In this document: positions 18,974 to 27,710 of the stretch, in pieces | Layout: the number at the start of each line of letters is the position of its first letter | How positions within the stretch are numbered: position 1 is the first letter of the stretch | From: an uncultured Opitutia bacterium | GTDB lineage: Bacteria > Verrucomicrobiota > Verrucomicrobiia > Opitutales > JABJCN01 | Assembly: GCA_913046175.1 (NCBI GenBank) | Contig: CAJWSN010000001.1 | Coordinates: 1 to 52,099, forward strand | Length of the DNA stretch: 52,099 bases | Reading direction: 5' to 3' | Notes under the pieces: model-generated | The model's input: the letters and a program-made list of their open reading frames with translations, nothing else | Told to the model about the DNA's origin: nothing | Databases searched by the model: none | Program-made: the position numbers and the translations under genes

Positions 18974-20032
18974 TCAAGATTGATTCTTGGAGGCAATGGT
19001 CAGTATCTCCGGTTCGTTGAGCATGGTGCCAATATTGTATAAAACAAGATCTCCCATGGTCCTGCATTTCAGAAAAACCTTGTTGTTGTGGAATTCAGCC
19101 AGTTCCCCCCGGAGTTGCTTGATTTTTTCTGGTGATGAAAGGTTTTCCTTGCACATGCACTCCATCAGTTGCTGCATCTGCTTCTGGGCTGAGTGATATC
19201 GGCGCCCGATTAGGGTACGCTCCTCAATCTGGTATTGCTCAATCGTATCCTTGTTCAGGCTCTGGGTACAAAGCTCGACGATCGGGTTGTTGCCCTTGAA
19301 GAATTGAGGCAGGTAAAAACTGCGATGACCCTCGTAGGACTGCTGGTCAAAGTCGATCGCACGCACACGGTACTGGATTTCCTCAAAATCCGGTGTCATG
19401 TCCACAATGTAATTGTAGGCGCGCATATCTCCGAGGAGGCGGATGAAGCACCGCTCGTTGAACTTCACAAACTCCTTGGCGATTCTTATTCGATTCAGGC
19501 CAAGGTGATCCTTGTAGCGCTTGATATATTCATCTCCCGGAATGCCGGCAATGTGTTCCTCCAGGAGTGTGCCCCGGTCAACGAGGAAATGCATGGCATT
19601 CGGAGACAGGATTTGTTCCAGCGCCAAACCATAAACCCGGGAGGCATCGGCACGCTTGATGTAGTAGTAATCATAGTTGTCGTTGAACTGGTTGATGATT
19701 CGAATGCGGAAAGGGCAGGAGTTGCCGAATGCGCAATAATCAATCCGGTCAACCATTAGATGCTCAACGGCAGAAAGGTCGCCGCCGGTTTTCAACAAAA
19801 TGTAGGTTTCAGCCAGGGTGCGGTTTAATTGCTCTATCTTTTGCGGATTATAAATGGGGTTTTCCCACAGGGTGTCCCGTTGCCTTTTGTCAAGCAGCGG
19901 GTAGGAACTTTCAAAATTGCAGAGTTCCTCGTAGGTCACCGGCAACTCCAGGTTCCTGCCATGTTTTTTGAGAAAACCGTCCAACTTCTTGCTAACGGGA
20001 AAGAACGGTTTGCGCTTGAGTTTGGTTTTCAC
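18974..20032 (-). CDS. hypothetical protein with an atypical (RIO/Kdo-like) protein-kinase-fold signature
   Basis: YYYIKRAD is Lys-like. LLEEHIAGIPG is hinge-like. LGDMRAYNYIV resembles the RIO loop HGDLSEYNILV with the same Asp-to-Asn spacing. RAIDFDQ resembles IDFPQ. The gene looks more AT-rich than its neighbours. Confidence 0.45.
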   Translation of the reverse strand: MKTKLKRKPFFPVSKKLDGFLKKHGRNLELPVTYEELCNFESSYPLLDKRQRDTLWENPIYNPQKIEQLNRTLAETYILLKTGGDLSAVEHLMVDRIDYCAFGNSCPFRIRIINQFNDNYDYYYIKRADASRVYGLALEQILSPNAMHFLVDRGTLLEEHIAGIPGDEYIKRYKDHLGLNRIRIAKEFVKFNERCFIRLLGDMRAYNYIVDMTPDFEEIQYRVRAIDFDQQSYEGHRSFYLPQFFKGNNPIVELCTQSLNKDTIEQYQIEERTLIGRRYHSAQKQMQQLMECMCKENLSSPEKIKQLRGELAEFHNNKVFLKCRTMGDLVLYNIGTMLNEPEILTIASKNQS

Positions 20033-20097: not shown

Positions 20098-21168
20098 TTA
20101 CTGCGCTTCATCTGCCATCTTTTGGGCAAGCATGGAAAGTTCTGCGGCCTTGAAGGCGTGCTTCTGTGTCATGGCGGTCTCCGTGCGGTGGAGGCAGTCA
20201 AGGATGAGCTGCCCAAAAAAAGGGAAGGCCACCCGGCCCTTGCACTCAATAAGCTTTTCCCCTTCGCCGTCGACCAGGAAAATCTTGTTCGACCCTTGTC
20301 GTGTGACATCACAATATTTCCTGACCTCCATGGTCCCTTTTGTCCCAACGACAAAAACCCGCCCGTCTCCCCAGAAACCTAGACCGTCCGGCGTGAACCA
20401 ATCAACACGACAGTAACAGGATGCGCCATTGTCGGCCGTGAGTGAAGCTTCACCGAAATCCTCCAGTCCGGGCTTGTCCGGAGATGCGAAATTTTCCACC
20501 CGGGCCAAGTTCACTCTGGCGTCCGAAGCCCCAGCATATGTCAGGAACTGTTCAAATTGATGGGAACCAATGTCTGTCAGTATCCCACCGTACTTTTCCT
20601 TCTCAAAAAACCAATCCGGCCTCTTGTCCCTGGAAAGCCTGTGGGGTGCCATGATGAGAACCTGTACCACATCCCCGACCGCCCCTTCCCTTATTAATTC
20701 CCCGGCGTGAAACCCCGCCTCCTGGTGAAGCCTTTCCGCGTAATAGACCATGTACTTGCGGCCGGTTGCCGCGACCTTTGCTTTTGCCTCCTCCAGTTGT
20801 GCCAGCGTGGTAAATGGGGACTTGTCCGTGAAATAATCCTTGCCGGCATCCAGCACTCGCATTCCAACGGGGCCGCGGTCACAGGGAATGGCCGCCGCCG
20901 CAACCAACTGAATCTCCCCATCGTCCAGTATTTGATCAAGGCTTTCTGCGGCCCTGGCCTGTGGAAAAGTCTCCTGGAAGGTACGTACTTTTTCCGGGTC
21001 CGGATCGTACACATATTTAATTTCTGCCCCGGCTTCCAGAAGACCATTGCATTGGCCGTAAATATGACCGTGGTCCAATTGCGCGGCTGCGAACTTGAAT
21101 TCTCCTGCTTGCACCACAGGCCTTGATTTCCCCTTTGGGGCGTAGTTCATGCCTTCTGCACGTGTCAT
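20098..21168 (-). CDS. Gfo/Idh/MocA family oxidoreductase
   Basis: It has a Rossmann N-terminal half (LVAAAAIPCDRGPVGMRVLDAGKDYFTDKSP) and an oxidoreductase C-terminal half. Length is 356 aa. Confidence 0.8.
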   Translation of the reverse strand: MTRAEGMNYAPKGKSRPVVQAGEFKFAAAQLDHGHIYGQCNGLLEAGAEIKYVYDPDPEKVRTFQETFPQARAAESLDQILDDGEIQLVAAAAIPCDRGPVGMRVLDAGKDYFTDKSPFTTLAQLEEAKAKVAATGRKYMVYYAERLHQEAGFHAGELIREGAVGDVVQVLIMAPHRLSRDKRPDWFFEKEKYGGILTDIGSHQFEQFLTYAGASDARVNLARVENFASPDKPGLEDFGEASLTADNGASCYCRVDWFTPDGLGFWGDGRVFVVGTKGTMEVRKYCDVTRQGSNKIFLVDGEGEKLIECKGRVAFPFFGQLILDCLHRTETAMTQKHAFKAAELSMLAQKMADEAQ

Positions 21169-21433
21169 TAATAATACCTTCCTTTTGCTTGGGTCAATAT
21201 AGCCATTACGTTTTGAGTGATTATTTTGTCAAATCAAGGCAGGAGCTTGAATGCTTGCCTCTGATATTGAACATACACCGGTTTTGACTGTCTCTGTTGT
21301 TATAATCAAACGACCCAGAAAAAGCTTGCAATTTCTATACTTATTCACAATTGCTCACAACGAGGGTTCATTAACTCTTGGGCATTTTTGAGACAAACAA
21401 CGAGGATTTTTTTGTGAGGAAAGGACAGATAAT

Positions 21434-24271
21434 TTGTCAGCATATACTGTTTTAATTGGCTTCACCGCCTTGATGATTGCAGGCTGTGCGGGCTTTTTCA
21501 GCGTCATTGGCATAGCAGATCTTTTTGAGGGCAATTCGCCATGGATCAGGAATGCGGTGATTATAATGGCAGCGAGTCTGGAGGTGGGCAAGTTGGTGGC
21601 GGCCTCCTTTCTTTATCGATACTGGAAGAAAAGCAGCCTGGGACTGCGCACTTATTTATTTTCTGCAGTCCTTCTACTGGTGGCAATCACCTCGTTTGGC
21701 ATCTATGGTTTCCTTTCCAAGGCATTCCGCGATAATGATCTCAAGGTTGAGACCCTGCGCAACAACCTTGCTTCTCCTGAGGGGGAAATCGCATTGCTTG
21801 ATCAACAGGCCAAGGTCTTCCAGGGCGACATCCGGGTACAACAAGACAAGATAGCGGAACATCGGGCCAAGATCGGCGCCTACCAGACAAAGACTTCATC
21901 CCTGGAGGATAGAATCCTGGAGCGTGAGCAGAGAATCCAAACGATGGAGCAGCAAGTGGAGGCCCTGCGGAGGCAGACGCCCGATGCGGTGCCTGCGAAT
22001 GAGAAACATATCGCGGATGAGCGCGTGCGCCTGAAGGCGCTCATCGCACAGGTTCACCTACAAATTGATGATCGTGAGGATGCCAAGCTGCAGCTTGTTC
22101 AGGCATCAAACAGTGAAATTGCCAACTACCAGAAGCAGGCCCTCCTTGCCAATGAGCGGATGGTGGTGCTGGACAATGCAGTCAAAATCCTGACCGACAA
22201 GGGGCCTGGTGGGTTTCTCAAGAATGACTATGTAAAAAAAGGGGAGGAGCTGCGCCTCCAGCAAAAGCCTGAACGGGACGCCCTTCGTGCACATGTGGCC
22301 TCGCTCAATGAAAATATAAAGATTTCTCGCGACCGCCTTCAACAAAACCTTGCCCGCATCGATGTGCGCATCAAGGAACAGGAAGCTGACATCACTGCGC
22401 ACAATGCATCCATTGGCAGGCTTGCTGACAAGGCCAAGACCCTGGATGTCGAAGCCCAGCAGCAGCATGAGGCAAAAATCACCGTGGTGCTGGGAGAAAT
22501 GACCGGCGTGGAAAATGAAATTCGCGGCATCAAGGGTGAAGTGCAGACAATTGCCGCCGAGGTGCGCAAGGAGGAGGACCTCATCCTGAAGGCAGAGTAT
22601 GCCATTCAGGATAATGAGGCGGGAACCCTCAAGGCCGAAACCGGCAAGCGGAAGCCGGAGGCAGAGATTTCAGCAATCCTCACGCAGGTGGATCACACGG
22701 AGATCGGCGCCTTCAAGTTTATAGCGCGCGCATTTTTTCAAGACTCCATTGAGGCTGCGCGTGCGACTGGCGACAAGACTTTGGTGTGGCGTGCTGAAAC
22801 AAAGGCCATGGACAGCGTTGTCAAGTGGTTCATCCTTGTGATTGTCGTGGTTTTCGACCCGCTGGCGGTGACCCTGGTTGTTGCCTTCAACGTGGCGTTG
22901 ATCAAGGATGAAGTTAATAAAAAGGAGTTTTGGAAATTTGCTCTAAAGCCTGCCATGGCAGTGTTGATTCTCGGGCTGATACTTGGTGGTGGGTTTATGG
23001 TTCTGCAAAAAGGCGGCCTACAATGGGGTTCGTCAGAAGTGGACTCCAGTGTTGCAGAAGCCGGACAAAAGGAAAACCCCGACGCCACGCCGCTGGAGAA
23101 ATTTCGTCAGGCACTGTTCTCCCCGCAGAAAAAAGATGCCGGTTCCTCGATCCTGGCCGATGCACCACTTTATCAGCGGATTCCAGCGGATTCCGTATTT
23201 GTCATGACTTTTAGAAGTTTCGACAATGTCCTCGACAGCGCGGAATTCGTCGACCTGCTTAAACGTGGCCTGACCAGTTCCATTGCACCAAACCTTGCCC
23301 GGGAGCTCAAATTAATTTGTTCCGACCCGGCAGGATATGGCCTTGCCCGAGCACGCCCAGCGTTTTTCTTTTCCAAGTTTCCGCCGGGGGATGCCCCCAA
23401 GGGACCTGGTGCGATTGCCTCCTACCCGGCATCGGGTGTTTTGTTCAGTTTGGAGCGTCCTGGTTCCCTGGAGGTGCAGCTTGCCCATACACTCCTGGGA
23501 ACCATCGGTGGTCGCTGGAGGGTGGAAATTGACAACGGCTTCAAGGCCTTCTACCATCGCGACCGTCGATTGGCTGTGGCTTTTGATCAATCGGCCCTGG
23601 CCATTTACGAGGATCCGCTGGGCCAGCTTGGAGACGCAGGGCTTCGGGATGAAATCAAGAATCTTTTTTCCGGCAACGCACCCACCCTGGCTTCCAGCAA
23701 GACTTTCGTCCGACACATGCAGGCCCAATACGATCTGGGGCTCTGGTTTGACGGGACCGCCTTTTTCCGGGAGATGAATCGTGATGCCGCCGGTTCGCCT
23801 CTTTACGGCCGGCTTCGCAAGTTCCTGGATTTCCAGAGCACGTATGAAGTCACGTTTGACAAAGGTGTGGCAATGGTGGACGGCAGGTATTATTATCGTG
23901 AAAAGCGTTTGCTCGATGCAGGCATCTTGTCCCTTCGCTCTGCCTTGCAGGATATTCGACCTGGCGATGCCAACACCGCCCAGGATCAACTGATGCTCCT
24001 TTGCGTGGAGAAGTTGGATTTCACCAGTTTTTGCACCATACTCGAGAAGCCTGAGCCCTCAGAAAACAAATTTGTTAAGCTTCTTGGAGCCGATGAGGCG
24101 ATGGACAACGTTGTATTCTCCCGCAATGTGGACAGCCCATATGAAGGACGCTTTTCCCTGACCCTTGAATTGAAGGAAAAGAATCTCCACAGCCTGAGTG
24201 AAATTTCCGAACTTATTCAAAAATCCATGCAGCCGGAAGTCTCCAGTATCGAGACCAAGACCTCCAATTAA
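21434..24271 (+). CDS. hypothetical polytopic membrane protein: 3 TM, ~370-aa coiled coil, 2 TM, ~400-aa unknown domain
   Basis: TTG start preceded by GAGGAAAGGA. TM helices are VLIGFTALMIAGCAGFFSVIGIA, AVIIMAASLEVGKLVAASFLY, TYLFSAVLLLVAITSFGIYGFL, WFILVIVVVFDPLAVTLVVAFNVALI and AMAVLILGLILGGGFMVL. A long heptad-rich region lies between TM3 and TM4. No family recognised. Confidence 0.8.
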   Translation: MSAYTVLIGFTALMIAGCAGFFSVIGIADLFEGNSPWIRNAVIIMAASLEVGKLVAASFLYRYWKKSSLGLRTYLFSAVLLLVAITSFGIYGFLSKAFRDNDLKVETLRNNLASPEGEIALLDQQAKVFQGDIRVQQDKIAEHRAKIGAYQTKTSSLEDRILEREQRIQTMEQQVEALRRQTPDAVPANEKHIADERVRLKALIAQVHLQIDDREDAKLQLVQASNSEIANYQKQALLANERMVVLDNAVKILTDKGPGGFLKNDYVKKGEELRLQQKPERDALRAHVASLNENIKISRDRLQQNLARIDVRIKEQEADITAHNASIGRLADKAKTLDVEAQQQHEAKITVVLGEMTGVENEIRGIKGEVQTIAAEVRKEEDLILKAEYAIQDNEAGTLKAETGKRKPEAEISAILTQVDHTEIGAFKFIARAFFQDSIEAARATGDKTLVWRAETKAMDSVVKWFILVIVVVFDPLAVTLVVAFNVALIKDEVNKKEFWKFALKPAMAVLILGLILGGGFMVLQKGGLQWGSSEVDSSVAEAGQKENPDATPLEKFRQALFSPQKKDAGSSILADAPLYQRIPADSVFVMTFRSFDNVLDSAEFVDLLKRGLTSSIAPNLARELKLICSDPAGYGLARARPAFFFSKFPPGDAPKGPGAIASYPASGVLFSLERPGSLEVQLAHTLLGTIGGRWRVEIDNGFKAFYHRDRRLAVAFDQSALAIYEDPLGQLGDAGLRDEIKNLFSGNAPTLASSKTFVRHMQAQYDLGLWFDGTAFFREMNRDAAGSPLYGRLRKFLDFQSTYEVTFDKGVAMVDGRYYYREKRLLDAGILSLRSALQDIRPGDANTAQDQLMLLCVEKLDFTSFCTILEKPEPSENKFVKLLGADEAMDNVVFSRNVDSPYEGRFSLTLELKEKNLHSLSEISELIQKSMQPEVSSIETKTSN

Positions 24272-24274
24272 TAC

Positions 24275-25879
24275 ATGTTTCGCGAACATCCACCATTAAT
24301 TTTGCTCTGGGTCCTGCCTGTTATTGGTGCAGGGTGTGCGTCTCAGAAGACACAGTCCGTTGAGCATCCACCAACTTCCATGATTGCGCCCGAACCGATG
24401 GAAGGGGAGGCAACCATAACGATTGCCAGCCTGGAGACAGCGCCAGGCGGGCTCGAAACTGAATTCCGTGTCCATGGCGGAGAGGATGACGCCTGGTTGA
24501 CCCTCGGCTTGCCTGGTGTAGCCGGATCGTCTGGTGCGCCCAAGGGGGAAACGACCCGCGGGGACTTGCCTGTGTTTCCAGTTGACAATGGGGCTGTTCG
24601 GGATGTGCCGGTGTTTTCCGGGGATTCCGAGCTTGGGGTGGTTCAGGCAGGTTCCCATCTGCAAAAAACCAGTCAGGCCATGGACCTGCCGGTATATCCC
24701 ATGGAGGAGCCGGAAGATCTCGCAGAACCGGATTTGGCGGGTCCGGCCGGGGAGGGCGGGGTTCCATCAAATACACGTCCAGCCACCCCGTCTCCTGCTG
24801 ATCCTACCCCGGAGAAACACGAGAAACCTCGACCACTTCCCGAAAATGTTCGCACCGCCTTCTTGAAAACGAATGCAGAGATGAACGACACCCCGGAGGA
24901 GCCCGGGACGAGAAAACCTTTCGCATGGCCTCGACCAGGATCAGCTGTTGAAACACCGGAGAATCTGCAGGCCCCGACAGACGATGTGGCGGCATGGCTC
25001 AAGGGCCATGCATTGCCCAAGCCCGTGGATTCTTTGGGGCTGCTGGATGAATTTGATGGCCCGGCAGACGCATTTGCCTGGCTCCTTCAACGCAGCCAAT
25101 CGAACAAGGCGCCAGACTCCCTGGCCGAAACCCGCAAGCAGATGGCCGTCCTCGATTGGCTGGCCCGTCTACAGGAAAATAAAAGTAATGAGCCGTGGGG
25201 TCATGGACGCAACCGTGACTTGGACGAGGTGCTTGCATGGTTTCGGAAAGGCGGCCTCGGCCAGGATGACAATGCCCCCGGACAGTCAGCCATGACTGCT
25301 GCGACCGGGCAACTTTTCCAGTGGCTGGGCCGATCCGCGCAAAAGAATGATGGTAATCACCCGCCTACAGGCGACGTGGTTGTTGGGGCAGATCCCTTGT
25401 CCCGGTGGCTTTCCCAAGGCCAAAAGGCTGGCCCTCCATCTTTGGTCAACCATCAACCAGATCAGGCCCTGAAATTTCCCCTGCAGTTATTCTCGGTCGG
25501 AAAACCTGTGGCGGTGAATTCAACGGGAAGGCCGCCAACAAACCCTACTGCGTCGAAATTATGGCTTCAGTCTCGCCTCGTAAAGAAGGCGACTCCTGAT
25601 ACCACCAGCCAAACCGGGACAACTATTCCCCAAGTGGATTATTCAGCCGCTTTCTCGTGGTTGCGTCGTGCGTCAGACAATTGGCAGCAACAATCGGGTG
25701 GTATGACAGCCCGGCGAATCCCGAGTCGAGTGAAAGCCAGGCCACGACCCAGCCTTACGGATGAGGAAAACCTGACTGAGGCCATGGGTTGGCTCCGAAG
25801 AGGCACTGGCCAGCGCAGACATTCCCTGCATGCAGCAACGGGAACGGATGCCTCCATAGAGGCGAAGCAGACTCCGTAG
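24275..25879 (+). CDS. hypothetical Pro-rich lipoprotein with a reiterated W-L motif
   Basis: Its ATG lies 3 nt after the upstream stop. The signal and lipobox-like sequence is LLWVLPVIGAG-C21. The composition is low complexity and Pro/Gly/Asp-rich. Ten x-x-W-L/F-x-[RKQ] motifs are present. Confidence 0.75.
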   Translation: MFREHPPLILLWVLPVIGAGCASQKTQSVEHPPTSMIAPEPMEGEATITIASLETAPGGLETEFRVHGGEDDAWLTLGLPGVAGSSGAPKGETTRGDLPVFPVDNGAVRDVPVFSGDSELGVVQAGSHLQKTSQAMDLPVYPMEEPEDLAEPDLAGPAGEGGVPSNTRPATPSPADPTPEKHEKPRPLPENVRTAFLKTNAEMNDTPEEPGTRKPFAWPRPGSAVETPENLQAPTDDVAAWLKGHALPKPVDSLGLLDEFDGPADAFAWLLQRSQSNKAPDSLAETRKQMAVLDWLARLQENKSNEPWGHGRNRDLDEVLAWFRKGGLGQDDNAPGQSAMTAATGQLFQWLGRSAQKNDGNHPPTGDVVVGADPLSRWLSQGQKAGPPSLVNHQPDQALKFPLQLFSVGKPVAVNSTGRPPTNPTASKLWLQSRLVKKATPDTTSQTGTTIPQVDYSAAFSWLRRASDNWQQQSGGMTARRIPSRVKARPRPSLTDEENLTEAMGWLRRGTGQRRHSLHAATGTDASIEAKQTP

Positions 25880-25899
25880 CCCTCCAACCCAAGGGCCCC

Positions 25900-26802
25900 A
25901 TGGAACGGGACGACTACTGGAAACCCCTGTTTTTCCCGGGACAGGCGACAAATTTCTTCAACCTTGGGGATTTACCTGAATTCCTGCCTGATCATGTCAA
26001 TTACCATGCAGGCAATGCCCTCTTTATGGCCGAGCTTTGTCGCTGGATTTACAATACCGACAACGAGGAAGCCCGTGCCTCTGGCTCCAGTACGTCCGTG
26101 GAAAATGCCTATCTCGATCGGGCAAACCTTAGGGAGGTCAGGCTTTGCAACCCCGAGGAGGCCCAGGCAAGCCTGCTCCTTTCAAAAGATGAGTCCTATG
26201 CCATCCTGCTATATCGTGGCACCAGCAAGCTGCAGGATTGGCTGGCAAACCTGAATGCCCCTGCAGTCCGTTGGTGGGGAAAGGGGATGGTGCACAAAGG
26301 GTTCATGGAGGCCTTCGTGAAAATATGGGAACAGGTTGCCCCGGTTTTGGCTGACGTGTCTGTTCCCGTGTTCTTTGCCGGACATAGTCTGGGTGGCGCC
26401 CTGGCAACCCTGACCGCCTCGTTGCGCGCTCCTCATGCCCTTTACACATTCGGTTCCCCAAGGGTGGGCAACCGTGTCTTTGCCCAATCCCTGCAACATG
26501 TCACCGTGCATCGTCTTGTTAATGGACTGGATGTGGTCCCAACACTGCCGATACCCGGTGGACCTCTGGACTATGTTCACGTGGGCAGACGACGTCGACT
26601 CTGGACGCATGCACGGTGGAACCTGCTTCGTGGGCTCGCCGGGCTTCGTCGCTTGTGGCGTCGACGAAAATTTTCAGTGGATACTTTCCTGCAGGCGGAA
26701 AACCCATTCCGCCCATCGGACTTCCTTGTGGACCATGCCCCCCTTAATTATGTCACGCGCCTCCAGCGGGAGTGGCATCGCTCTTCAGCCAGGAGAAGGT
26801 GA
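25900..26802 (+). CDS. class-3 lipase family alpha/beta hydrolase
   Basis: Nucleophile elbow FFAGHSLGGALATL, Asp motif VNGLDVVPTLP, and His motif VDHAPLNY. Start placed at ATG 25900, 20 nt after the upstream stop. No signal peptide. Confidence 0.85.
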   Translation: MERDDYWKPLFFPGQATNFFNLGDLPEFLPDHVNYHAGNALFMAELCRWIYNTDNEEARASGSSTSVENAYLDRANLREVRLCNPEEAQASLLLSKDESYAILLYRGTSKLQDWLANLNAPAVRWWGKGMVHKGFMEAFVKIWEQVAPVLADVSVPVFFAGHSLGGALATLTASLRAPHALYTFGSPRVGNRVFAQSLQHVTVHRLVNGLDVVPTLPIPGGPLDYVHVGRRRRLWTHARWNLLRGLAGLRRLWRRRKFSVDTFLQAENPFRPSDFLVDHAPLNYVTRLQREWHRSSARRR

Positions 26803-26899: not shown

Positions 26900-26976
26900 C
26901 GGGCCGTGGCGCAGTCTGGTAGCGCACCAGTATGGGGTACTGGGGGTCGTGAGTTCGAATCTCACCGGCCCGACCA
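26900..26976 (+). tRNA. tRNA-Pro (anticodon GGG)
   Basis: I folded the cloverleaf by hand. Acceptor is CGGGCCG/CGGCCCG, D arm GCGC-AGTCTGGTA-GCGC, anticodon arm CCAGT-ATGGGGT-ACTGG (GGG at 34-36, G37), T arm GTGAG-TTCGAAT-CTCAC. The discriminator is A and CCA is encoded. Confidence 0.95.
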
Positions 26977-27263: not shown

Positions 27264-27710
27264 TTATTCGACTGGATCGCCTCCACCTGCCTCATTGAGG
27301 GCGGTTTCAGGCCTTTGATATTGGGCGCTGCCAAATCCAAGTATCGGGATGCATATAAATGGGAAAAACACCATGCAAACTCCAAAACCTGCGCTTTTGC
27401 CAAAACATTTCGCCAGCTCAATATAAAACATCCATACCCACACAATTGCCGTACAGGGGACTATAAGCATAATCACCCACCACATTGGCTTCCCAATCAT
27501 TTCTACCATTACCACATAATTCCAGATGGGAACAATGGCGGCAACACCAGGCTTTCCAGCCTTGGTGAATATCTTCCAGAAGCCGGCAACGATAAGGACA
27601 CCCATGATTGTGCATATAATCGCCACAACCAACATGCCTATGCCAGCTGCTGCCGCAGCCCCTCCCATCATGGCTTCAAGTTCTTCTTGAGTATATTGAT
27701 CAGTGCTCAT
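27264..27710 (-). CDS. DUF5684-like small membrane protein
   Basis: GFWKIFTKAGKPGVAAIVPIWNYVVMVEMIGKPMWWVIMLIVP...LAKCFGKSAGFG matches the pattern I associate with that family. Confidence 0.75.
   Translation of the reverse strand: MSTDQYTQEELEAMMGGAAAAAGIGMLVVAIICTIMGVLIVAGFWKIFTKAGKPGVAAIVPIWNYVVMVEMIGKPMWWVIMLIVPCTAIVWVWMFYIELAKCFGKSAGFGVCMVFFPFICIPILGFGSAQYQRPETALNEAGGGDPVE

Follow-up and report, generated by a model that had tools for sequence, protein, structure and literature searches.

A conserved gene pair of Verrucomicrobiota encoding a candidate inner-to-outer membrane connector built on a membrane core shared with phage proteins

Three genes at positions 21434–26802 of a 52,099-nt stretch from an uncultured Opitutia bacterium (contig CAJWSN010000001.1; the whole stretch is called the window here) raise the question of whether they constitute a single envelope system and, if not, which of them belong together. 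A first-pass annotation had described them as a tightly coupled operon of unknown function encoding a giant membrane and coiled-coil protein (gene 1), a lipoprotein (gene 2) and a class-3 lipase (gene 3). The coordinates of the open reading frames (ORFs) bore out the spacing on which that description relied. Gene 1 (21434–24271, 945 amino acids (aa)), gene 2 (24275–25879, 534 aa) and gene 3 (25900–26802, 300 aa from its ATG, in a frame open from 25789) all lie on the plus strand and are separated by gaps of 3 nt (TAA-TAC-ATG) and 20 nt (TAG-N20-ATG). Gene 1 begins with TTG; this codon, at 21434, is the earliest start codon of the frame, yields a complete first transmembrane (TM) helix and aligns with the N-termini of homologues.

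Comparison with other genomes distinguished a widely conserved pair from a trio of limited distribution. One genome for each of 185,579 species was scanned, a relative of gene 1 was found to be encoded in 158 of them, and the best 80 loci of these 158 genomes were examined. They derive mostly from Opitutia and Verrucomicrobiota, with a few from metagenome-assembled genomes (MAGs) of Planctomycetota. Gene-1 homologues at E<=1e-3 number 198, are about 800–1,100 aa long and carry no precomputed Pfam domain; where a source is named, it is an Opitutae, Opitutales or Verrucomicrobiota MAG. Enough downstream DNA was available at 77 loci. A strict lipobox search identified a lipoprotein gene after gene 1 at 67 of the 77, with a gap of −11 to +17 nt from the gene-1 stop codon at 65 of those 67 and a 4-nt overlap being common. 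A looser lipobox pattern added six loci and inspection by eye two, which left L009 and L028 without an assigned lipoprotein. A lipobox ORF is placed within about −14 to +17 nt of the gene-1 stop codon at at least 73 of the 77 loci. The ORFs in this position are 200–635 aa long and lie on the same strand across divergent clades and GC contents, and the pair is kept down to about 25% gene-1 identity in freshwater clades, marine clades and a few Planctomycetota MAGs.

The lipase followed a different pattern. When gene 3 was compared by phmmer with all ORFs of 84 related loci, matches were obtained only at L001, L006 and L008, and a reverse look-up from a 46%-identical lipase revealed one more trio, L085. 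Gene 1 at these four loci is 62–73% identical to that of the window (62–64% at L001, L008 and L085). The flanks of the trio loci checked (a gene for a 352-aa protein, a SpoU methylase gene and a fructosamine kinase gene) are collinear at 58–68% identity, as is tRNA-Pro(GGG). Since the flanks are equally collinear within this subclade, adjacency of the lipase is no more informative than adjacency of the housekeeping genes. At loci beyond the subclade, the lipoprotein gene is usually followed by a gene on the opposite strand or by a MoxR-DUF58-BatA series, and gene-3 relatives of 41% and 37% identity in other phyla have unrelated neighbours. From these data we conclude that the conserved unit is a translationally coupled pair, genes 1 and 2, and that the trio occurs only in the window's subclade. 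The proposal of a coupled unit therefore held for genes 1 and 2 but not for the lipase, and the co-occurrence check that the first-pass annotation had put forward for the three families came out against the trio, which is not syntenic in related genomes beyond the subclade, while the pair is.

The product of gene 1 had been predicted to be a polytopic membrane protein with a very long coiled coil, and an AlphaFold2 (AF2) model of the full-length protein (predicted local distance difference test, pLDDT, 77) agreed with that prediction. In the model, TM helices occupy residues 3–30, 36–62, 69–95, about 465–491 and 496–524. A helix of residues 69–255, which starts as TM3, leads to a loop (256–265) and a return helix (266–445), so that the AF2 secondary structure describes an antiparallel coiled-coil hairpin (residues 96–447; 21719–22774, plus strand, as for all parts of gene 1). 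With a helix rise of 0.15 nm per residue, its arms of about 160 residues each would measure about 24 nm. A family motif in the middle of the coil, NERxxxLDxAVKxYxDKGPGGFLKxDGxKKGxELRxxQxPER, is placed by AF2 exactly at the turn, and this coincidence of the conserved motif with the modelled loop supports the hairpin. The tip itself (DKGPGGFLKND, residues 255–265; 22196–22228) is conserved across the family. Following the hairpin are TM4 and TM5 (residues 448–524; 22775–23005), an acidic linker that is modelled with low confidence and varies in length in the alignment (residues 525–571; 23006–23146; pLDDT <50 at residues 527–548) and a C-terminal alpha/beta/alpha domain (residues 572–932; 23147–24229).

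Conservation of gene 1 peaks in its membrane part, TM1–TM3 being the best-conserved segment (residues 3–95; 21440–21718). Among 85 aligned sequences the invariant positions were Glu50 and Lys53 (SLEVGK, in TM2), the motif ITSxGIYG, and Asp475-Pro476 (VFDPLAV, in TM4). In the 85 homologues the TM2–TM3 loop has a net charge of +2.95, and the TM1–TM2 loop is almost devoid of Lys and Arg. Under the positive-inside rule these loop charges place the N-terminus inside and the coil and C-terminal domain in the periplasm. The periplasmic assignment, which we infer from sequence, is reinforced by the lipoprotein partner and by the extracytoplasmic location of TP0453, a structural relative of the C-terminal domain described below. 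An envelope-spanning topology for genes 1 and 2 is plausible.

The nearly invariant Ile-Ala-Gly-Cys of TM1 (IAGC, residues 15–18; 21476–21487) was considered as a signal-peptidase-II lipobox and rejected, because the Cys lies mid-helix in a 28-residue TM segment, is followed by a conserved hydrophobic segment and, in some homologues, gives way to Asn or Val; the tetrapeptide probably serves helix packing. Foldseek with the full-length model returned only long generic antiparallel coiled coils (Rad50, MukB, chemoreceptors), a gene-1 profile searched against PDB sequences gave coiled-coil matches only (8QOX, designed coils, haemagglutinin HA2), and scans of Pfam, NCBIfam and PADLOC produced only coiled-coil noise (SMC, Rad50, Fib_alpha, JetC). 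Searches of Pfam, NCBIfam and the PDB detected no similarity of gene 1 to MotA/ExbB/TolQ or to channel families. A defence function had also been suggested for the locus, and the corresponding check against PADLOC-DB 2.0 did not favour it: the sole match was that of the gene-1 coiled coil to JetC (E 6e-4, 15.8 bits), and genes 2 and 3 had none.

The C-terminal domain of gene 1 had been left unassigned by the first-pass annotation, and the structure search that it proposed was informative here. Modelled alone from 90 sequences, the domain was predicted with a pLDDT of 81 and a predicted TM-score (pTM) of 0.81. Foldseek against the PDB gave significant matches only to six chains of Treponema pallidum TP0453 (E 1e-6 to 8e-5, probability 1.0, TM-score 0.50–0.55 on the target; 3K8J, E 1.1e-6, TM-score 0.54), with a sequence identity of 7–9%; against predicted viral structures nothing was significant. 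Among 25 gene-1 family members scanned, the orthologue P0006 (64% identical) was the only one to match Pfam DUF4836 (PF16120; 33 bits against a gathering score of 27, E 4.4e-8), and gene 1 of the window reached no Pfam threshold, that of DUF4836 included. These model-based comparisons assign the domain a TP0453/DUF4836-like fold. A literature search for DUF4836 gave no result. In the literature, TP0453 is described as a periplasmic alpha/beta/alpha lipoprotein whose amphipathic helices integrate into membranes, and it is proposed there to carry lipid or glycolipid in outer-membrane biogenesis (PMC5421087; PMC7521688). Although the fold is shared (PDB 3K8G–3K8J), TP0453 is a free lipoprotein of 287 aa, whereas the domain of about 360 aa in gene 1 is fused to a polytopic inner-membrane protein.

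Gene 2 likewise conformed to its description as a Pro-rich lipoprotein with a repeated Trp-Leu motif. It has a signal peptide with the lipobox VIGAGC, whose Cys21 is the only Cys of the mature protein, and 10.5% of the mature residues are Pro. Leu or Phe comes directly after ten of the 13 Trp residues of the mature protein (binomial P = 5e-8); nine of these W-[LF] motifs lie within residues 241–506 and fit the pattern hydrophobic-x-x-W-L-basic, and the tenth is at residue 74. The protein has a long first half of low complexity and a disordered linker rich in Pro, Ala and Gly. Pfam, NCBIfam and PADLOC contain no family for gene 2, and only eight relatives were found in 5.8 billion clusters. The sequence diverges fast, with 24–28% identity where gene 1 has 62–64%. 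The positional equivalents resemble one another in design, not in sequence: they have a lipobox, a median of 80% of the mature residues are disorder-promoting, and 57 of 61 complete equivalents have a Trp within the last 70 residues. The C-termini read ...W[LI][RK]xxG[RK] in marine clades and PFRLSEWxS...H..WR in freshwater clades, and a short Trp helix near the C-terminus is the only part conserved between clades. Asp was found at position +2 after the lipobox Cys in none of 67 equivalents, and gene 2 is probably, judging from its sequence, an outer-membrane lipoprotein.

The membrane core of gene 1 extends well beyond these bacteria. A profile of residues 1–108 (alignment A4) was searched against 1.84 billion representative proteins (50%-identity clusters) and matched 3,710 clusters at E<=1e-3, 2,961 of them at E<=1e-10. 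Verrucomicrobiota long forms head the list, and most of the proteins listed below them are 190–520 aa long. Five such short forms that were retrieved keep the TM1–TM3 motifs, have a short coil followed by the same TM4 motif, and end in an acidic tail; the motifs SLExGK, ITSxGxYG and VFDPLAV are shared, and E-values reach 1e-30 to 1e-48 with the 108-position profile. Ten short forms compared with Pfam had no credible family, only chance-level coil and TM matches. One of the short forms, P0300, is encoded on a contig of 366 kb whose content is phage-like, and adjoins an Amidase_2 gene. A tblastn search located the core family in isolated and assembled phages (15 records), where its proteins are without exception annotated as hypothetical. 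The carriers are Stenotrophomonas phages CM1 and RAS14, Xanthomonas phages XacN1 and Xoo-sp13, Ralstonia phage RsoM2USA, Salicola phage SCTP-2, Pelagibacter phage Mosig, Microcystis phage Mel-JY01, Flavobacterium immuto phages and uncultured phages of 484–735 kb. Named short forms include Flavobacterium phage immuto gp85 (QQO92003.1) and Xanthomonas phage XacN1 ORF242 (BBA65390.1), and at least 579 viral contigs in IMG/VR were confirmed to carry the core family. By these profile matches the core, four TM helices plus a hairpin (residues 1–495; 21434–22930), is homologous to a very large, unnamed and uncharacterised family of short proteins (about 340 aa) from large and jumbo phages, for which Pfam has no model; cultured jumbo phages of Xanthomonas, Ralstonia and Stenotrophomonas are among its carriers.

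Statistics for the viral forms were taken from 80 IMG/VR loci (L091–L170). Complete viral short-form ORFs have a median length of 337 aa and a median coil span of 128 aa, compared with 348 aa in the long form. A fifth TM helix was present in none of the 76 viral ORFs with a locatable TM4, and no lipoprotein gene was found downstream of the short form at any of the 80 viral loci. The phage proteins differ from gene 1 in having a short coil, no TM5, an acidic tail in place of the folded C-terminal domain and no lipoprotein gene; gene 1 of Verrucomicrobiota is, on this comparison of sequences, a lengthened, domain-fused and lipoprotein-partnered derivative of the phage family. A distance of about 1.8 kb separates one short form from genes annotated as holin and chitinase, and another lies among replication genes. 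A lysis role for the phage homologues was considered and not adopted, because their contexts show no consistent link to lysis. At 44 of the 80 viral loci a gene resembling Hsp20/alpha-crystallin precedes the short form on the same strand, with a median gap of about 75 nt. Other common neighbours are PhoH-like and tail-fibre-like genes; these identities, including that of the Hsp20-like gene, were read from sequence.

A further family with a comparable membrane arrangement is the tetraspanins (Tetraspanin, PF00335; gathering score 32.1 bits), which the window's gene 1 does not match. Three phage short forms (P0284, P0290 and P0360) gave sub-threshold scores of 16–20 bits (E 6e-4 to 1e-2), and one gene-1 long form (alignment A1) gave a sub-threshold match at E 0.011. 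The predicted topologies agree: the N-terminus is inside, the first outer loop is small, and the second, between TM3 and TM4, is large.

The combination of an inner-membrane coiled-coil protein with an adjacent lipoprotein recalls the two-component spanins. These consist of an inner-membrane protein with periplasmic coiled coils and a lipoprotein encoded by an adjacent, overlapping or embedded gene; the o-spanin resides in the outer membrane, is largely unstructured and often rich in Pro, and has a flexible linker following the lipidated Cys. The two proteins together would span the periplasm, intermolecular disulfides through periplasmic Cys residues are described as a universal feature, and coiled coils plus Pro-rich segments are regarded as features of fusion proteins (PMC6139136). 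Genes 1 and 2 share the gene order and the lipoprotein build with lambda Rz/Rz1 and T4 PseT.3/PseT.2, and gene 2 resembles an o-spanin in being a disordered, Pro-rich lipobox ORF that abuts gene 1 and has a predicted outer-membrane destination. The differences are considerable. An i-spanin has about 150 aa and one TM helix, compared with 945 aa, five TM helices and an additional TP0453-like domain in gene 1, and the gene-1 hairpin, unlike the coil of Rz, is anchored at both ends in one membrane. O-spanins have about 60 aa (up to about 300), compared with 534 aa in gene 2. There is no Cys in the gene-1 coil (residues 96–460) and none in mature gene 2 beyond that of the lipobox. Finally, spanins are encoded in phage lysis cassettes with a holin and an endolysin, whereas genes 1 and 2 are chromosomal and look vertically inherited. 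Because lysis context, single TM domain, size and periplasmic Cys all fail to correspond, we regard the pair as spanin-like in build but not as a spanin.

Tol-Pal, Lpp and LpoB-type links also join an inner-membrane protein that has an extended periplasmic helix or tether to an outer-membrane lipoprotein. They offer a functional analogy to genes 1 and 2 and, as far as can be judged, nothing closer: no relation in sequence or fold was detected in Pfam, NCBIfam, PDB or Foldseek searches, and no TolQ/R-like motor genes adjoin the pair in the neighbourhoods inspected. The pair is a real, uncharacterised envelope module without a characterised counterpart. The statement in the first-pass annotation that no system of this composition has been characterised thus stands for genes 1 and 2, which belong to no Pfam, NCBIfam or PADLOC family, but not for gene 3, an ordinary lipase.

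For gene 3, assignment as a class-3 lipase with an intact Ser/Asp/His set and no signal peptide was correct. The protein scored 79.3 bits against Pfam Lipase_3 (PF01764; cut-off 22; E = 3.4e-22), and among solved structures its nearest relative is Rhizomucor miehei lipase 4TGL (E = 7.8e-13). Ser163 (in the GHSLGG elbow) and Asp211 (in NGLDVVP) align with the catalytic residues of 4TGL, and His279 is present within VDHAPLNY. No hydrophobic signal sequence was found in the first 45 residues, and the protein is most likely, from its sequence, a cytoplasmic or membrane-peripheral enzyme. Among the candidates scored, 5,271 homologues were found at E<=1e-3; the relatives listed are about 265–340 aa long, and those bearing a name belong to other phyla (Nitrospirota, Acidobacteriota). 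Unlike 4TGL, gene 3 belongs to a bacterial subfamily of about 295 aa without signal peptides and has a basic insert between Asp211 and His279. This insert of about 65 aa (RRRRLWTHARWNLLRGLAGLRRLWRRRKF...; residues 211–279, 26530–26736) is strongly basic and rich in Arg and Trp, a composition with which it could serve as a membrane-binding lid. Gene 3 may be co-transcribed with genes 1 and 2 in this organism, but it is probably an ordinary class-3 lipase that is incidental to the pair.

Our preferred reading, which we hold tentatively, is that genes 1 and 2 encode a two-gene membrane connector, spanin-like in build and comparable in function with Tol-Pal-type tethers, possibly lipid-handling, of which the lipase is not a component. 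The four-TM bundle of gene 1, with Glu50, Lys53 and Asp475 buried in it, would anchor the protein in the inner membrane. The hairpin would reach about 24 nm from TM3 and TM4 into the periplasm and carry the conserved Gly-rich tip at its end, and TM5 and the flexible linker would then hold the TP0453/DUF4836-like domain in the periplasm. From the outer membrane, the gene-2 lipoprotein would extend a disordered tether ending in amphipathic Trp helices, and these would dock across the periplasm on the hairpin tip or on the C-terminal domain. Such a connector would serve envelope cohesion and outer-membrane lipid handling. The earlier suggestion of an envelope-spanning assembly coupled to a lipolytic enzyme is accordingly retained in its first half, as plausible, and abandoned in its second, the lipase accompanying the pair only in the subclade.

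Several points weigh against the connector. Gene 2 cannot be aligned across clades, and hidden Markov model (HMM) iteration over the positional equivalents stalled at six loci; for this reason the claim that the partner is the same throughout is a positional and compositional argument. We know of no established lipoprotein sorting rules for this phylum. The TP0453 match is moderate, with a TM-score of 0.37 on the query and a root-mean-square deviation of 8–9 Å. Similarity to spanins in the PHROG profiles is weak: gene 1 of the window matched phrog_89, 'Rz-like spanin', at E 2e-4 to 5e-4 (21–22 bits), and although the three Rz-like spanin PHROGs are the commonest matches of the family (7 of 25 members, E 1e-4 to 1e-2), the aligned part is a TM helix with coiled coil, for which composition may account. 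Other coiled-coil PHROGs (tape measure, SbcC) also match the gene-1 family. The spanin analogy cannot be inherited from the phage relatives, because these have neither a lipoprotein partner (0 of 80 loci) nor a consistent lysis context. In addition, the invariant buried charges are not explained by a passive tether and hint at an ion- or energy-coupled activity; they suggest that the four-TM bundle does more than anchor.

Other explanations of the locus were weighed against the same evidence. That genes 1 and 2 are merely adjacent, the lipoprotein-like ORF being coincidental or mis-called, might be argued from the low complexity of gene 2 and its failure to align across clades, since sequence of this type is prone to spurious ORFs. 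Nevertheless, a lipobox ORF of 200–635 aa starts within about 15 nt of the gene-1 stop codon at at least 73 of 77 loci, and its C-terminal Trp motifs recur. The absence of any such ORF from the 80 phage short-form loci indicates that the lipoprotein pattern is specific rather than a search artefact, and we consider mere adjacency very improbable. A three-component system, in which the lipase serves membrane attack, defence or lipid remodelling and depends on genes 1 and 2 for its delivery, activation or regulation, is better grounded but still improbable. In its favour are the common strand, the 20-nt gap and the lack of a terminator-like site between genes 2 and 3, recurrence of the trio at all five subclade loci that extend far enough, persistence of the lipase at this position after divergence to 46% identity, the secreted PAF-acetylhydrolase-like esterase that follows the lipase at L001, and the lipid-related nature of the TP0453-like fold. 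Yet at none of about 75 loci outside the subclade does gene 1 have a gene-3 homologue within 10 kb, and inside it the housekeeping flanks are just as collinear. The lipase family comprises many stand-alone proteins of about 295 aa with unrelated neighbours in many phyla, gene 3 lacks a signal peptide, whereas most of genes 1 and 2 is predicted to lie in the periplasm, and PADLOC gave no match to such a system.

The phage relationship admits the idea that genes 1 and 2 are a domesticated membrane-remodelling device that actively fuses or remodels both membranes, as in vesicle formation, controlled lysis or cell-cell transfer. The core is common to at least 579 viral contigs and to isolated jumbo phages, and Rz-like spanins are the commonest, if weak, PHROG match. 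Coiled coils with Pro-rich segments count among the features of fusion proteins (PMC6139136), and the conserved loop at the tip of the hairpin is Gly-rich and hydrophobic. We nonetheless judge this reading to be rather unlikely, given that no holin or endolysin is nearby, no prophage features surround the locus, and inheritance looks vertical with conserved housekeeping flanks. Both ends of the hairpin are also fixed in a single membrane, which is not the case for Rz, the only Cys of mature gene 2 is that of the lipobox and the gene-1 coil has none, and the phage homologues lie outside lysis cassettes. Alternatively, the charged four-TM bundle could be the active part of an envelope-stress sensor or energy-coupled transducer, with the coil and lipoprotein acting as a ruler or sensor of the outer membrane. 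RcsF-IgaA and LpoB-PBP1b would be analogues. Conservation is indeed highest in the TM bundle (invariant Glu, Lys and Asp-Pro) and not in the periplasmic parts, and the long flexible tether of gene 2 resembles the reach-through linkers of sensor lipoproteins. Because thousands of phage proteins retain only the bundle and a short coil, the bundle may have an autonomous activity. Against a sensor, gene 1 has no cytoplasmic output domain and only short cytoplasmic loops, no regulator or kinase is conserved nearby, and the searches of Pfam, NCBIfam and the PDB that found no motor- or channel-family similarity apply here too; this alternative, drawn by analogy, is doubtful in our view.

Gene 1 is preceded by a 265-nt divergent intergenic region (21169–21433) that is AT-rich as first described (GC content 0.366, compared with 0.533 for the window) and presumably contains the gene-1 promoter and leader; no sigma-70-like consensus site was scored within it. 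Promoter-like and terminator-like sites within the three-gene block did not exceed shuffle expectation, and no tandem DNA repeats or further Rfam elements were found at the locus. Upstream, on the minus strand, are a GFO/IDH/MocA oxidoreductase gene (20098–21168), divergent from gene 1, and the gene for the 352-aa protein (18974–20032), which has no Pfam match. Downstream, tRNA-Pro(GGG) (26900–26976, plus strand), also noted in the first-pass annotation, is a landmark conserved in the subclade and lies outside the module; a gene for a DUF5684 small membrane protein (27264–27710, minus strand) separates it from the SpoU methylase gene, and the fructosamine kinase gene is a further neighbour. 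No holin, endolysin or prophage features were found around the locus in the window. A mobile island at tRNA-Pro was considered and rejected, there being no GC anomaly and the tRNA and both flanks being conserved across the subclade.

Some variation was observed around this conserved frame. The 352-aa protein is 63–68% identical at L001 and L085 and has positional equivalents of similar size at L007 and L008; in the window the GFO/IDH/MocA gene is inserted between its gene and gene 1. The DUF5684 gene is missing at the equivalent position at L001 and L085. The 64%-identical relative at L001 has a phage-type integrase gene, which is the second gene upstream of gene 1 and is separated from it by the conserved upstream gene, and the interval between lipase and tRNA-Pro contains two extra genes, one for a platelet-activating-factor (PAF)-acetylhydrolase-like esterase with a signal peptide and one for a nucleoside 2-deoxyribosyltransferase-like protein; these additions occupy 162–1391 and 8484–9923 of L001. 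In a sister marine clade (gene 1 about 25–35% identical; L002, 12627–18829, L003, L022 and L047), a gene for a MoxR-like AAA ATPase directly follows the lipoprotein gene on the same strand, and at L002 and L003 this continues as a MoxR, DUF58/VWA, BatA and DUF4175 operon of the 'Bat aerotolerance' type.

The connection of inner and outer membranes and the supply of lipid to the outer membrane have been little studied in Verrucomicrobiota and Planctomycetota, phyla that are abundant in the sea and in fresh water. As a conserved pair with a lipid-carrier-like domain, genes 1 and 2 present a concrete candidate, amenable to testing, for connecting the membranes or supplying lipid, and the cellular, domain-rich gene 1 gives a first handle on the possible role of the phage proteins at the host envelope. 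A bolder interpretation, to which we assign a low but not negligible probability, is that the pair is an undescribed Verrucomicrobiota trans-envelope machine on a phage-hallmark module, whose ion- or energy-coupled bundle acts on the outer membrane. Action would be exerted through the hairpin, the TP0453-like lipid-binding domain and the tethered lipoprotein, and lipid would be moved or membranes remodelled or fused. If this were the case, thousands of phage homologues would manipulate the host envelope by the same core mechanism, and would form a class of phage membrane effectors that is new and separate from both holins and spanins.

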